Shown here one piece after another: positions 9,294 to 30,393 of a stretch of DNA of 64,000 nucleotides. The stretch is from Candidatus Harrisonbacteria bacterium (lineage in GTDB: Bacteria > Patescibacteriota > Minisyncoccia > UBA6257 > 02-FULL-45-10c), in the NCBI GenBank assembly GCA_016214655.1, contig JACROC010000007.1, forward strand, positions 14,785 to 78,784, written 5' to 3'. Numbering within the stretch: the first letter of the stretch is position 1; the number at the start of each line of letters is the position of its first letter. Below the pieces are notes generated by a model. The model saw only the letters and a list, made by a program, of their open reading frames with translations, was not told the DNA's origin and ran no database searches. Made by a program: the position numbers and the translations under genes.

Positions 9294-9333
9294 AGAAACC
9301 CAGGTCGACAACTGGATCAGATTACCTGCCCGC
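9294..9333 (+). repeat. cassette-junction repeat, variant 2 (aacccaggtcgacaactggatcagattacctgcccg)
   Basis: shares CAACTGGATCAGATTACCTGCCCG with copy at 11147; AATCTG/CAGATT-type dyad. Confidence 0.6.
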
Positions 9334-9426
9334 AATGCTAGCGCAAGTGTTGCAGGCGGGGAACCTGTTTGGTTTAAAAAGAAAAAGCCAGTTGTTCTTA
9401 ACAACTGGCAAATATAATGTTCGGCA

Positions 9427-10230
9427 TCAGCCGATAGCAACTTTGGCGTCCGCTTTGTAGAGTTTCTTCTGCTCTTTTAAGTCTTTCGGCCAGCACCTAA
9501 TGACATCTTCAATCATATCGAGGGCGGTGCGAAAGTCGCCGTAAATCGACTGGATGCCAGCATTCAAGCAGAGTGGGTCACCGTCTTCGCCAACAAAGGA
9601 GACAGTCGATTCGTTGCAATATACCTCACCATCCTTTTTGTAGTAACTGTCCTTGCTCTTATCTATGCATCTGGCAAAGGTGAACATAATGCGGCCCGCC
9701 ATAATAAATGTACGAAGTTGGGTCTCGCCAAACTTACCGCTCATTCCTCTCTTATCACATTTGTCAGCCATTTCTCCTAATCCTCGGCGATACACGAGCC
9801 GCAAGAACTTGTCGAAAGTCTGTTGGAGAACATACTTTTGGGCGTTGCAGTAAGTATTAAGCTGGTGCTCGACCCAATCTTGACCCGTTATCTCTTTCAG
9901 CATAAAGCCAAGCGTAGTCTGTACTGCAGAGCCTTGGTCAAGAAGATTGCTCGCTCCGAGGTCTGTAATGTTGGGAACTTCGTGCCCAGTTTCCAACTCA
10001 TAAGCCTGACGGAAATAAACAGCCCGATCATCAGTTCCCGTTCGCAGCTGTTCAAAGGCATCAACCATTAATTCTGGGAGATATGATTCAATACTCCAGA
10101 AATCATACTTCTCATCGTTTGGAATGTTCAAATTCTCGAGGTAGTGAACGAGGAAATTGGCGAAGGCTCGCTGCCCCTTCCATTGTGCAGTAAACCTCTT
10201 TAAGCCGACAACCAGCTCTTTCTTGTGCAT
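9427..10230 (-). CDS. hypothetical protein (cassette gene)
   Basis: 267 aa; ATG preceded by conserved leader and GGAGG. Confidence 0.55.
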   Translation of the reverse strand: MHKKELVVGLKRFTAQWKGQRAFANFLVHYLENLNIPNDEKYDFWSIESYLPELMVDAFEQLRTGTDDRAVYFRQAYELETGHEVPNITDLGASNLLDQGSAVQTTLGFMLKEITGQDWVEHQLNTYCNAQKYVLQQTFDKFLRLVYRRGLGEMADKCDKRGMSGKFGETQLRTFIMAGRIMFTFARCIDKSKDSYYKKDGEVYCNESTVSFVGEDGDPLCLNAGIQSIYGDFRTALDMIEDVIRCWPKDLKEQKKLYKADAKVAIG

Positions 10231-10300
10231 TCGTATTCCTCCTTTTTCAATGAACGTTAACTGCTAAAATAGATTAATAAAAAACTAAAATAAAGTCAAA
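10231..10300 (-). promoter_or_regulatory. conserved cassette promoter and 5'-UTR module
   Basis: minus strand: TTGACT-17-TAATCT then tttagcagttaacgttcattgaaaaaggagg ATG. Confidence 0.6.
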
Positions 10301-10413
10301 TCGCCGGGCGAATTCTCGTTTGATGAGATGTCGTCGTAGAAGATGCCGGGACTTATTTGGTGAGAATATACAATAAAGACCCGATATGAATCGGGTCTAT
10401 TGAAAAAATATCT

Positions 10414-11073
10414 TTACTCCTTACTCTTTGCCAAAATTTCCAGAATCCGCAAAAAGAGATTGATGATGTCGAGATACAAACTAATACATACATCAACCGC
10501 ATTATCAAGCGTGGCCGGGATCTCGCTCGCCCGGTGCATATCGTAACCGATATAAAGCGCAAAAATTCCTGCGGCAATATAGTGAATTACCGTGAACTTC
10601 GCGAGCGCTGGGATAAACAAAGAAAGAATGGACACGACCAGAAGCGCCGTAAGTGCTCCGAAAAGAGCGCCACCAATAGAACGATAAAAATTGGGAAACA
10701 TAAGTCCGGATAAAGCCATTACGCCCGTAACGGCCGCCGTAAGAGTTGCCGCTTCGGAAACGATTCCAGGATACATGACCTGATATTGCGCAAGTGCCGG
10801 TCCGAGTATCGCTCCGAATGGTATCACTACGAGATTATATCCGAGAAAAGAAACCAGTGCTGATCCGCTGGTACTAAGCAAAATACCGAGAAGAGGAAGG
10901 CCGAGACCAACTAAAAGGAACATAAGAATCCCTGGGCGCCAATTCGCTGTCAATTCGGAAACGATATAGGTAGCCACGAAACCCCAAGAGAGAACGCATC
11001 CCATGACAAAGTAGAATGCATTGCGCGACATAGTGTCAGAGCCAGAACGGTCAAATACATCTGCCTTAAGCAT
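10414..11073 (-). CDS. BI-1/YccA-like 7-TM membrane protein
   Basis: 219 aa, seven hydrophobic segments, size and topology typical of the Bax-inhibitor/YccA family. Confidence 0.5.
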   Translation of the reverse strand: MLKADVFDRSGSDTMSRNAFYFVMGCVLSWGFVATYIVSELTANWRPGILMFLLVGLGLPLLGILLSTSGSALVSFLGYNLVVIPFGAILGPALAQYQVMYPGIVSEAATLTAAVTGVMALSGLMFPNFYRSIGGALFGALTALLVVSILSLFIPALAKFTVIHYIAAGIFALYIGYDMHRASEIPATLDNAVDVCISLYLDIINLFLRILEILAKSKE

Positions 11074-11136
11074 CTCTCCACCCCCTTTTCAACGAGCGTT
11101 AACTGCTGATGGATATATTACAAAGAAAAATAAGTA
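11074..11136 (-). promoter_or_regulatory. conserved cassette promoter and 5'-UTR module
   Basis: ccttttcaacgagcgttaactgctgatggatatat on + strand, i.e. leader CAGCAGTTAACGCTCGTTGAAAAGG plus RBS on minus. Confidence 0.6.
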
Positions 11137-11146
11137 AAGTCAAATC

Positions 11147-11180
11147 GCTAAATCAGCAACTGGATCAGATTACCTGCCCG
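11147..11180 (+). repeat. cassette-junction repeat, variant 2
   Basis: aaatcagcaactggatcagattacctgcccgg. Confidence 0.6.
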
Positions 11181-11315
11181 GCCAAGGAACTGAATAGTGA
11201 AGTTATAAAAGAAAAACCTAAACAAAGATGGGTAAAAAATAACTGGGAGTTGCGTTTTTAATTTTTTTTAATTATTATATATATCAGATCTCTTAAATAA
11301 CGTAAGGAGGAAGAA

Positions 11316-28746: not shown

Positions 28747-28808
28747 TTGGTTAGTTTATAAAAGAAAAAACCGCTCAAATTTGATAGCGGTTTCTAATTT
28801 CATAAATT

Positions 28809-29609
28809 CTATACTGAAAGTTTCATAACTTTATCAACAAATCTCCACCAATCATCATCTGAAGAAATCACGTCCCAAAAAACCTCCAAGTCCCTTTCCG
28901 TGTATTCCGAAAAGTGCTTTTTGGAAAATCTCTGTCGGCGGTATCGCTGATTAAAGTCGCCCAAAAGAAAATTATACTTCGACTTCGGCCCCTCAATACA
29001 ATTTGATTTCGTAATCGACTCAAGAAATTTTCTCCACCAATCCGAAACTAGAGATACCATACCGCCCCTTAATTCCTTTACCATTTCTTCTGCTAAAATA
29101 GATAATAATTGACGAGATGATTGCGTAAGGCCCTTGCATCCGATATATGCTAAACAAATCGCTGGACGATCATCTTTTAATCGACAACCACCTGGTCCTA
29201 AAAAAACACATTTGCTTCGAGGCTTACCTTCTAAATTTGCCACGCTTTCCTTTGTGTTTTCTGTACACAACCACTCCAAGTCTGGTTCCGGAAATTTGAA
29301 TTTAGGGTTTTTTAAAAGAAGATAAAAGATGTCATGGGCTTTGATCGGCGGATAATTCTGATAACAACATGAACATTCGCCCTCTTGATGTATTTGGGAT
29401 GAGAAGTCGGTCTGTTTAGAAAATATCTCCAAGTGCCTCTTGCGGTAGTTATCTATTCTTTCAATTTCTGGCAGAGGAGGCGGGTTTACTTTTTGAATCA
29501 ATATTCTAGCGAAATCAGCAAATTTATTTAAATTTTCAACGATCTTCCGATAATCAGGCGGATTTGCTTCTAAATACACCCTACCCCCAATCTGCAGATT
29601 TTGAATCAA
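28809..29609 (-). CDS. YkgJ-family (CxxCxxCC-type) putative Zn/Fe-chelating domain protein
   Basis: ECSCCYQNY and CVFLGPGGCRLKDDRPAICLAY match the PF03692-type Cys-cluster pattern. Confidence 0.45.
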   Translation of the reverse strand: MIQNLQIGGRVYLEANPPDYRKIVENLNKFADFARILIQKVNPPPLPEIERIDNYRKRHLEIFSKQTDFSSQIHQEGECSCCYQNYPPIKAHDIFYLLLKNPKFKFPEPDLEWLCTENTKESVANLEGKPRSKCVFLGPGGCRLKDDRPAICLAYIGCKGLTQSSRQLLSILAEEMVKELRGGMVSLVSDWWRKFLESITKSNCIEGPKSKYNFLLGDFNQRYRRQRFSKKHFSEYTERDLEVFWDVISSDDDWWRFVDKVMKLSV

Positions 29610-29640
29610 TATTAATGAAAAAATTAGAAAAAGTCAAATA

Positions 29641-29680
29641 AATCTGGGTCGTCTAGTAAGTGATGTGAGGTCCCGCGCGA
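29641..29680 (+). repeat. cassette-junction repeat, variant 1b
   Basis: aatctgggtcgtctagtaagtgatgtgaggtc; shares tctagt with the tRNA-His end. Confidence 0.55.
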
Positions 29681-29845
29681 ATCTATTTAACGGGCTTATA
29701 AAGTGGAGTTCCTAAAGCCTAATTTTTATCTTGTTGATGCCCTCTACCATTTTTTAATATATATCCTTCAGAAAATAGGTTAAGATTTTCTAGTCAAATC
29801 TTGTGCGATAAAAAATCCGCTCGTTCACGAGCGGATTTGGTTTGG

Positions 29846-30247
29846 CTAACAAGGATTGAAAACTGACCCGGCAATCACTTCTCCGATGGCCATTAAAAGA
29901 AAACCTTCGAAGAAACCTCCTCCAAATATGAAAAAGCTTATTGGAATACCACCAAAAAATAAAATTAATCCTAGAATTCCCATGTATAACCGTATCTGTG
30001 ACGCTGCCTCCGCCAACTTCTTCTGACCAACACAAGCCTTTAGGGCAATCGAATATTTCCAAATCAGTATCATAATAAAAACAGCCAGCGACATAGAAAA
30101 TAAAACAATAACAGTCTCGGCCCAGCTAATAGGCAGAAGGAAAATCAACAGGGCGCCAGCCGGACACACTAGCGTGATTAAAACTGATAAAAAATATAGC
30201 TGTGCTAAATGCTTAGCGGATTTTAGAAATGCTCTCATCGACTTCAT
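29846..30247 (-). CDS. small membrane protein (first cassette next to tRNA-His)
   Basis: real start MKSMRAFL; four TM helices. Confidence 0.5.
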   Translation of the reverse strand: MKSMRAFLKSAKHLAQLYFLSVLITLVCPAGALLIFLLPISWAETVIVLFSMSLAVFIMILIWKYSIALKACVGQKKLAEAASQIRLYMGILGLILFFGGIPISFFIFGGGFFEGFLLMAIGEVIAGSVFNPC

Positions 30248-30265
30248 TTTTGCCCCCCTTTTCAA

Positions 30266-30316
30266 AGAACGTTAACTGCTGATGAATATCATATCAGGAA
30301 ATAAGAATAAAGTTAA
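30266..30316 (-). promoter_or_regulatory. conserved cassette promoter and 5'-UTR module abutting tRNA-His
   Basis: ccctttcaaagaacgttaactgctgatgaatatcatatcagg on + strand, then aaagttaaat and the tRNA 3' end. Confidence 0.6.
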
Positions 30317-30321
30317 ATCTG

Positions 30322-30393
30322 GGTGCCTAGAGAGAATCGAACTCTCGCTACCTCTGCCACAGAGAGGAGTTCTACCATTAAACTATAGGCACC
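30322..30393 (-). tRNA. tRNA-His (GTG), with encoded G-1
   Basis: minus strand G-1 GTGCCTA..CCTCT-CTGTGGC-AGAGG..GAGAG-TTCGATT-CTCTC-TAGGCAC-C; anticodon GTG; G-1:C73. Confidence 0.8.

Follow-up and report, generated by a model that had tools for sequence, protein, structure and literature searches.

A candidate gene-cassette array at tRNA-His of a Candidatus Harrisonbacteria genome, probably built by a large serine recombinase

Introduction

What could have assembled 21 kb of short, unrelated genes, parted by one family of co-oriented repeats, against the end of a single tRNA gene? The question is raised by a 64-kb stretch of DNA (hereafter the window; contig JACROC010000007.1, positions 14,785 to 78,784) from Candidatus Harrisonbacteria, an ultra-small bacterium of the candidate phyla radiation (CPR). 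CPR bacteria, or Patescibacteria, have tiny genomes, and how they acquire genes is little known. A sequence-only reading of the window had proposed that copies of the tRNA-His 3′ terminus delimit gene cassettes here. We find that a large serine recombinase (LSR) probably built the island, an additive array of gene cassettes; the attachment (att) core of this enzyme would lie within the 3′ end of the gene that encodes it, in a sequence identical to the 3′ end of tRNA-His. In the literature that we searched, neither a cassette array nor a tRNA-anchored additive island is described for CPR.

Results

The tRNA-His(GTG) gene is intact and lies on the minus strand, as the sequence-only reading had it, at positions 30321–30392; the plus strand across its 3′ end reads AAAGTTAAATCTGGGTGCCTAGAGAG. 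Its right flank includes housekeeping genes (RNase Y, RNase J, iPGM, UvrC, IleS, ArgS, tmRNA/SmpB and a tRNA cluster) and is syntenic with a related genome, L011 (GCA_020724845.1). The cation-efflux protein encoded at 31314–31940 has a 100% identical counterpart in a Candidatus Harrisonbacteria metagenome-assembled genome, whose accessions the island proteins also bear. A cyanobacterial origin, which the tRNA cluster and a group I intron had brought to mind, is ruled out by this protein match and by RNase Y/J. The other side is adjoined by an island of ~21 kb (9297–30320) with 30 open reading frames (ORFs) of unrelated families. Repeats that we call X delimit 21 units of 305–2850 bp, besides which 3–4 junctions lack X and carry a promoter module (P, described below) and a terminator. 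The array seen earlier, of about 25 cassettes of 0.3–1.6 kb, is thus real, with its numbers and sizes corrected. Units have a regular build: promoter module, single gene, terminator and X. Terminator-like sites are in 2.4-fold excess in the island (42 observed versus 17.3±4 expected), and its GC content at third codon positions is lower than that of the flanking core genes and twice as variable (0.367±0.066 versus 0.408±0.037, p=0.015).

Annotation confirmed the cargo families named before (cytidine deaminase, M32, MFS, HD, NYN, isochorismatase, PspC and cytochrome c7) and added Bax1-I; no paralogues were found among the island cargo. The M32 carboxypeptidase (17006–18538, minus strand) has a single 50% match of unknown origin, followed by a flat plateau at ~45% (Bacteroidota, Nitrospirota, Dehalococcoidia). 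It is nearest to non-CPR phyla, which suggests that this peptidase was gained from outside CPR.

How closely do the repeats resemble the tRNA? The 12-mer AATCTGGGTGCC comprises the last 8 nt of tRNA-His and 4 nt of flank in plus-strand reading. At up to one mismatch it occurs six times, always on the plus strand (five times in the island and once at the tRNA), compared with 0.30 in shuffled sequences, 0 of 100 of which reached six. Likewise, TCTGGGT occurs nine times on the island plus strand (0.68 expected; maximum of 4 in 500 simulations), so that the claimed similarity between repeats and tRNA end stands clear of chance expectation on both measures. Profile searches recovered ten copies plus one degenerate copy of a variant X1, eight of X2 and two of X3, all between 9297 and 29680, and none in the remaining 43 kb of the window. 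As had also been claimed, all 21 repeats are co-oriented, regardless of the strand of the cargo genes (25 minus, 5 plus).

The ten X1 copies, like all repeats listed here on the plus strand, lie at 12967–13011 (core 12/12), 14347–14388 (core 10/12), 14722–14812 (core 12/12, followed by a second module, Y), 18601–18643, 21246–21289 (reading SLVAIVWDVRTRLVSL and a stop, then a terminator), 24097–24210 (with an 18-nt GC hairpin insert at 24119–24136, and Y), 25690–25810 (a long copy), 26692–26779 (an internal-deletion form, with Y), 27147–27236 (with Y, directly downstream of a phosphoribosyltransferase-like, or PRT-like, gene) and 28711–28754 (NLGAIVWDVRTCLVSL and a stop; core 12/12). The degenerate X1 copy is at 10329–10365 (nhmmer E=0.025). 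X2 is found at 9297–9389 (NPGRQLDQITCPQC and a stop), the leftmost copy and island boundary, which contains a GC-rich hairpin insert (9325–9360), and at 11146–11175, 12662–12692 (degenerate), 16901–16930 (NLGRQLEQIRACLIFI and a stop), 20567–20596, 24578–24609, 24973–25002 (SRQLEQIRTY and a stop) and 28106–28134 (degenerate, upstream of the PRT-like gene). X3 occupies 19822–19860 and 29641–29680, and a Y module stands alone at 11987–12033.

Compared with the tRNA 12-mer, the ten X1 copies match at 12, 10, 12, 7, 8, 11, 12, 10, 10 and 12 of 12 positions. The repeats are real, but the statement that at least 12 of them are identical to the tRNA end and flank over 12/12 positions holds for four X1 copies only. 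X2 cores are mostly degenerate, the copy at 16901 being the sole one with a perfect ACCCAGATT core. The two X3 copies do resemble the tRNA end, as had been noted with a figure of about 21 of 26 positions; the copy at 19822 matches tRNA end and flank at 22/27 positions with one gap, and alignment of the copy at 29641 requires a 4-nt insertion. Copies of the tRNA end thus recur inside the tRNA-abutting island, with an identity that is short, 7–12 nt in general and 22/27 for X3. Because only these 7–12 nt match the tRNA, the repeats are not simply copies of its end. The most degenerate repeats are those far from the tRNA, at the left end, and stops or frameshifts disrupt many copies. Related GC-rich hairpins (CCyGCC…GGCrGG) have inserted at slightly different points within X in two lineages, in the window (the two inserts given above, the one at 24119 being in frame) and in a second contig, L016 (6745–6764 and 8219–8238).

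What, then, is the remainder of the repeat? Beyond the 7–12 nt, the junctions are remnants, or relics, of an LSR gene's 3′ end and not, as had been thought, mainly copies of the tRNA terminus. A related metagenome contig, L024, has two LSR genes, whose products contain Resolvase, Recombinase and zinc-ribbon (Zn_ribbon_recom) domains; for one product, LSR2 (576 aa), the PDB matches are the SPbeta, A118 and TP901-1 integrases and TnpX. The last 30 aa of LSR2 (ending in LRTVNNVRTIFERQNGYIYIPDLRNYAHA and the stop) are encoded again in a relic on L024. A tblastn search with these 30 aa matched the L024 relic at 77%, L025 at 97%, L021 at 68% over 22 aa and the window, at 25705–25767, at 67% over 21 aa. 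The last match is in the long X1 copy at 25690, which aligns to LSR2 residues 551–571 of 576. Its peptide score against LSR2 was 69, versus 24.1±3.6 for shuffled sequences (0/2000 reach 69; z ~12), and its DNA score against the LSR2 gene was 48 versus 15.4±2.2 (z ~15).

The plus-strand translations, which run toward tRNA-His, are in register, each with a stop and then Y. X1 typically reads NLGAIVWDVRT(R/C)LVSL and a stop, X2 reads NLGRQL(E/D)QIRT… and a stop, and X3 begins NLGRLVNNARTVL; the long copy reads NLGAIVEDVRTILIRQSRYIYIPELRA and a stop, with Y right after the stop as in LSR2. Y (…ACCCCACCCC…CTCACTA…), found on the plus strand after some X1 copies, corresponds to the 3′ untranslated region (UTR) behind the LSR stop codon. 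The homology to the LSR tail begins at AAT CTG GGT GCC (NLGA). Reverse-complemented, these 12 nt give the acceptor end of tRNA-His together with 4 nt of flank; at the tRNA, the same frame reads NLGA-TAG. These alignments show X1, X2 and X3 as predicted allelic relics of one gene end, namely the last 13–28 codons of an LSR gene, its stop, its 3′UTR (Y) and its terminator. As alleles of one LSR coding segment, X1, X2 and X3 would be expected to have what they do have, the same length, conserved ends and a variable centre.

Where would recombination take place? X and the tRNA part directly after …GGGTGCC. Counted from this point of divergence, TnGAAC(T) lies at +18 in the window relics and at +13 in the tRNA T-loop, and at +17 and +12, respectively, in L016. 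In serine integrases, the motif bound by the zinc-ribbon domain (ZD) occupies half-site positions 16–24 in attP and 11–19 in attB, a 5-bp shift (PMC3783163). Because the shift seen here matches that one, and does so in two lineages, the right half of X fits an attP-type site and the tRNA fits an attB-type site, with the crossover probably at the last shared CC. The attB-like site, made up of the tRNA-His 3′ end and T-arm, would lie at ~30309–30343 on the plus strand (AAAGTTAAAT CTGGGTGCC TAGAGAGAATCGAACT). The left half-sites are ambiguous: AAAGT(C/T)AAAT touches the core directly in four relics, as it does at the tRNA, and five other relics have it 3–4 nt further out. On the other strand, the same motif is the −35 element of the P module.

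The offset also bears on length. From AGTTC to ACCC, every X variant measures 27 nt and the tRNA 22 nt; X as a tRNA 3′ half was ruled out by this 5-nt excess, which the attP/attB offset would explain. Single-strand folds of X1 and X2 gave z scores of +1.2 to −1.9 versus shuffled sequences on the two strands, without a common stem, and only the form with the GC insert folds. There was no consensus structure on either strand (−0.7 and −1.2 kcal/mol) and no Rfam match in the island. Thus, attC sites, small RNAs and plain partial tRNAs are excluded by the lack of a fold, of a consensus structure and of an Rfam match, together with the 27 versus 22 nt; a tRNA-like fold, also considered, was rejected for want of support. 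A dif/Xer-like or tyrosine-recombinase core in X1 (CATC-N6-GATG, with one compensatory change in L016) was considered and dropped, as it is absent from X2 and X3 and the segment is coding.

The sequence-only reading had not described the promoter module that the units have in common. On the minus strand, P consists of a −35 element (TTGAC), a 17-nt spacer, a −10 element, a near-invariant 22-nt leader (AGCAGTTAACGTTCGTTGAAAA), a Shine–Dalgarno sequence and ATG; the promoter is sigma-70-like. One copy (30253–30319, minus strand) stands between the tRNA-His 3′ end and the first cargo gene (29846–30265), and nine more were found at 10238–10300, 11080–11145, 14655–14721, 18541–18600, 21765–21831, 22386–22452, 24028–24095, 25307–25373 and 28645–28710. 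Ten units therefore start with P, which places unrelated ORFs behind the same 22-nt 5′UTR. No P module was found in the window outside the island, and the pattern had only 9 matches, single and by chance, in genome contigs. The junctions without X are 93% identical to one another, and the L016 cassettes have a different common promoter module. Conservation is stronger in the leader than in the promoter ahead of it. The leader, in which palindromes overlap (GTTAAC, AACGTT), might serve as an operator or in the control of translation.

Does the locus vary between genomes? The PRT-like gene of the window (27267–28022, minus strand) is three cassettes away from tRNA-His and has relics on either side. 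The number of cassettes between tRNA-His and this gene is 0 in L011, 3 in the window and 6 in L016, which represent three distant lineages. In L011, of the same clade, a terminator stands between tRNA-His and a PRT-like gene that is 43% identical to the window copy (E=1e-53). In L016, an independent metagenome contig, the first four of the six genes each end in an X1 element that is 24–26/31 identical to the window consensus, whereas the tRNA-His genes are only 72% identical. Next to the L016 tRNA, a perfect 28-nt direct repeat of tRNA end and flank surrounds a 1.36-kb two-gene insert, and a contig from a sister sample begins exactly at X1. Contig L021, from a third lineage, carries Y and an X1-like element behind tRNA-His. 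In three lineages the repeats are restricted to the tRNA-His flank. The NYN cassettes of the window and of L021 are not one cassette, since they are only 20% identical.

In other Parcubacteria, the PRT-like gene lies beside a tRNA cluster or between mreB and holB. Being an ordinary chromosomal gene there, it serves as a conserved anchor, and for the same reason we softened an initial view of it as tRNA-hopping cargo. In L028 (37–1775, Parcubacteria), the gene for an FAD-binding oxidase, which is cassette cargo in L016, ends up 5 nt upstream of the PRT-like gene, and neither X nor any further gene intervenes. In both L024 and L025, Y and an X-like element are located upstream of the PRT-like gene; the order in L024 is the intact LSR2 3′ end, one cassette (the PRT-like gene, on the opposite strand) and a relic with Y. 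These two contigs are population variants with 99% identity. Over 100 nt that begin at the core and run just beyond the stop, the relic of L025 nevertheless shows 100% identity to the 3′ end of the live LSR2 gene, versus 85% for the relic of L024 (segments compared: L024 7615–7714, L025 4230–4329 and L024 8695–8794). By its pattern, the difference is a recombination or conversion patch with the att core at its boundary.

A further tRNA gene points to recombination of this kind. The last ~17–31 nt of tRNA-Pro recur ~205 nt downstream (window ~30981–31000, and L011) around a conserved non-coding insert; the loci compared are window 30975–31257 (minus strand), L011 10715–11010, L035 840–960, L032 1017–1160 and L016 1556–1815. 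In the closest relative, L035, the tRNA-Pro site is empty and the same CTTGACAGAATTA promoter comes next; in L032, 31 nt separate two copies of 30 nt, and L016 has the same arrangement at tRNA-Phe. These repeats look like miniature integration scars or elements with a crossover in the T-loop. As filled and empty tRNA-Pro sites occur in one clade, recombination directed at tRNA 3′ ends would be active in these genomes. The footprint of site-specific recombination claimed for the tRNA-His 3′ end is thus upheld by the X1 elements and the 28-nt repeat of L016, by the 0, 3 and 6 cassettes and by the tRNA-Pro sites, with the correction that the repeats are LSR tails.

Is the recombinase itself still present? 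No recombinase family matched any sizeable ORF in the whole 64-kb window (Pfam, NCBIfam, PHROGs), none was hidden in its unannotated ORFs (Pfam at E≤5, or PHROGs) and no integrase remnants were found in its long intergenic stretches. In particular, Phage_integrase matched no ORF of the window. The earlier statement that the window lacks a recombinase is correct for intact genes and not for fragments, since the junction repeats are themselves pieces of a recombinase gene. A small protein between tRNA-Pro and tRNA-His, considered as a possible excisionase, showed no conservation. Scans of viral contigs gave no match to the M32 gene, to the P module or to either of two X1 patterns; an X2 15-mer had 93 chance matches there, none extended by nhmmer, and LSR2 had no relatives among them.

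Discussion

What is the mechanism of cassette accretion? We propose that an LSR element with attP in its own 3′ end would integrate at the tRNA-His attB site by a crossover at the last shared CC. The element would restore the tRNA 3′ end, and the C-terminal fragment of the LSR would stay at the distal junction as an attL-type relic. Units could then pile up beside the tRNA in two ways: (i) later excision may pair the tRNA-side site with a different relic; or (ii) recombinase-less cassettes with a mimic site may be integrated in trans. Either would leave single genes, each with its own promoter/5′UTR module and terminator. We favour growth at the tRNA end, because degeneracy increases away from the tRNA in the window and the perfect repeat of L016 is proximal to the tRNA. 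As the body of a recombinase is absent from the window, the array would be either frozen or served in trans.

Several observations weigh against this mechanism. A tblastn search (E≤1) of the window found no LSR body, intact or decayed, and the 13 kb of L016 have none either. The sole intact LSR with this tail is that of L024, a different lineage, where the core (CTGCTCCGC) differs and the contig carries no tRNA; there, the position of the relic downstream of an intact LSR 3′ end fits insertion into the LSR gene better. The likeness of X2 and X3 to the LSR tail is short and register-based only. All island proteins that were tested and are present in the searched collection are singletons at 90% identity, with no close relative. 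The conserved PRT-like gene is itself enclosed by the array, which continues past it for 18 kb of units bounded by relics. Finally, recombination of attP with attL or attR is not a normal reaction of serine integrases, so that serial accretion requires an extra step.

Could the units instead be complete integrative elements, tycheposon- or prophage-like, that entered tRNA-His serially and were reduced by random deletion to one gene and a distal att scar, with no cassette mobility? Partial tRNA repeats are known in the tRNA-anchored islands of Prochlorococcus and Methylophilaceae, the relics would be attL-type scars, and many relic ORFs are broken, the distal ones worst. Yet 21 scars in 21 kb are accompanied by zero fragments of a recombinase body or recognisable fragments of any other mobile-element gene, and the regular unit structure, with the same 22-nt 5′UTR on unrelated ORFs in ten units, also speaks against such decay, which we judge unlikely. 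A different polarity is conceivable, in which circular cassettes with a spare LSR C-terminus enter the 3′ end of a resident LSR gene on an integron-like platform, the newest beside the LSR and tRNA-His at the oldest end, the LSR at the left end having since been deleted. The gene order of L024, the L025 relic that is 100% identical to the live LSR 3′ end and the interspersion of X1, X2 and X3 alleles along the array would all suit this platform. The left end, expected to be the newest, nevertheless holds the most degenerate relics, the window has no LSR to the left of 9297 and the perfect 28-nt repeat of L016 adjoins the tRNA, so that we regard the platform as quite improbable.

Need the repeats be mobile at all? 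A regulatory or structural intergenic repeat family, with a regulon promoter, might have spread by duplication, gene conversion or homologous recombination after uptake, its likeness to tRNA and LSR being incidental. P is a plausible co-regulation signal, and the 93% identity of the X-less junctions, the conversion-like patch in L025 and the absence of a recombinase would agree with such spreading. It is very improbable in view of the strict co-orientation with the tRNA, the restriction to the tRNA-His flank in three lineages, the LSR 3′-end homology (z ~12–15), the 5-bp half-site offset in two lineages, the 28-nt repeat of tRNA end and flank in L016 and the lack of a conserved fold on either strand. 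A classical integron remnant, that is, a cluster of attC sites without an integron integrase (CALIN), would share with the island a dense array of small co-oriented cassettes and no adjacent integrase, but is hardly credible: X forms no hairpins (z values as above) and has no Rfam match, the cassettes have their own promoters and terminators, and the repeats are relics of a serine, not a tyrosine, recombinase. Accretion at tRNA-His by an LSR with its att core in its own gene thus remains the explanation that we prefer.

Which known systems work in a comparable way? In mode of working, the closest parallels are the tRNA-anchored additive islands treated below and the composite islands of the staphylococcal cassette chromosome (SCC), such as SCCmec and the arginine catabolic mobile element (ACME), where the large serine recombinases CcrAB or CcrC act at the 3′ end of rlmH/orfX. 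SCC islands grow by tandem accretion, contain direct repeats of the integration site and recombinase-less units served in trans, and give alternative excision products from alternative repeat pairs. The present island resembles them in its tandem units, its 21 co-oriented sites at the 3′ end of a conserved gene and the lack of a recombinase in any unit. It differs in its target (tRNA-His rather than rlmH/orfX), its units (single genes of ~1 kb rather than 3–60 kb), its repeat, which is a fragment of the recombinase ORF, the absence of a recombinase from the island as a whole, and its CPR host. The archaeal integrases of the Sulfolobus spindle-shaped virus (SSV) type are tyrosine recombinases with attP within the int gene. 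They share with our system an att site in the recombinase ORF and a tRNA target, so that integration partitions the recombinase gene; they are of a different recombinase class, archaeal rather than bacterial, and form no cassette array. To our knowledge, attP is intergenic in the characterised phage serine-integrase systems, whereas here it would overlap the C-terminal codons of the integrase, with the T-loop and acceptor end of a tRNA as attB. As in the A118/LI integrase (Rutherford et al. 2013, PMC3783163), the ZD motif lies 5 bp further outward in attP, and the crossover would be at a central dinucleotide without a long block of identity.

Additive tRNA islands with recurring tRNA 3′-end copies have been described in Prochlorococcus (bioRxiv 10.1101/2020.12.28.424599) and Methylophilaceae (PMC10872708). 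Like the present island, these tycheposon-type islands start at a tRNA, carry unrelated cargo between the recurring copies and are thought to grow proximal to the tRNA. They depend on tyrosine recombinases and have partial tRNA repeats of 20–50 nt, whereas here 7–12 nt are joined to a serine-recombinase tail, the sites are far denser (one per kb) and the units far more regular. No tyrosine recombinase or replication module of the tycheposon kind was found in the window, where the only recombinase trace is of the serine class, and the tycheposon analogy drawn by the sequence-only reading fails on this point. Its integron analogy holds in outline only, for an array, next to a fixed primary site, of small co-oriented cassettes that mostly have one gene and are each closed by a recombination site. 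Here, there is no IntI beside the array and no attC-type hairpin in the repeats, the cassettes are not promoterless, bringing their own promoters and terminators, and the primary site is a tRNA 3′ end.

The features that seem new, and for which our literature searches gave no equivalent, are the pairing of a serine recombinase with tRNA-His, the att core inside the recombinase ORF, which makes the scars gene tails, and the CPR host. If our proposal is true, a CPR genome would contain a dense gene-collecting hotspot, a serine integrase would target a tRNA gene with the universally conserved T-loop as part of its site, and an att core in coding sequence would mean that each event leaves a datable gene-tail scar, from which the history of the array could be read. 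A bolder extension, which we put forward tentatively and find doubtful as it stands, is a Parcubacterial serine-recombinase counterpart of the integron, whose core in the last ~30 codons mimics the tRNA-His 3′ end, with the T-loop as ZD motif, and in which cassettes with a spare C-terminus and a host-type promoter would be captured, stacked and shuffled at tRNA-His. Such a counterpart would be a dedicated gene-sampling locus for genome-reduced CPR bacteria, and with integration and excision the recombinase would alternate between its full length and a version cut short at the C-terminus (NLGA-stop). Genome engineering also has a practical interest in new LSR families as sources of short, well-defined attP/attB pairs. 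The main interest lies in a concrete, testable mechanism of gene acquisition for CPR bacteria.

Other Features of the Window

Two features of the housekeeping flank are recorded here. A tRNA-Phe(GAA) gene (33245–33546, plus strand), missed by ARAGORN, contains a group I intron (Rfam match 33267–33513) that lies immediately 5′ to the anticodon and separates a 5′ exon (33245–33276) from a 3′ exon (33505–33546). Its orthologue in L011 (9737–9809) is uninterrupted, and the HNH-like (32785–33159) and SprT-like (32119–32775) ORFs that adjoin the split gene are not found in L011. The isoleucyl-tRNA synthetase (48961–52539, minus strand; 1192 aa) contains an inserted histidine-phosphatase (phosphoglycerate-mutase-like) domain at about residues 495–670, between the two IleS halves.

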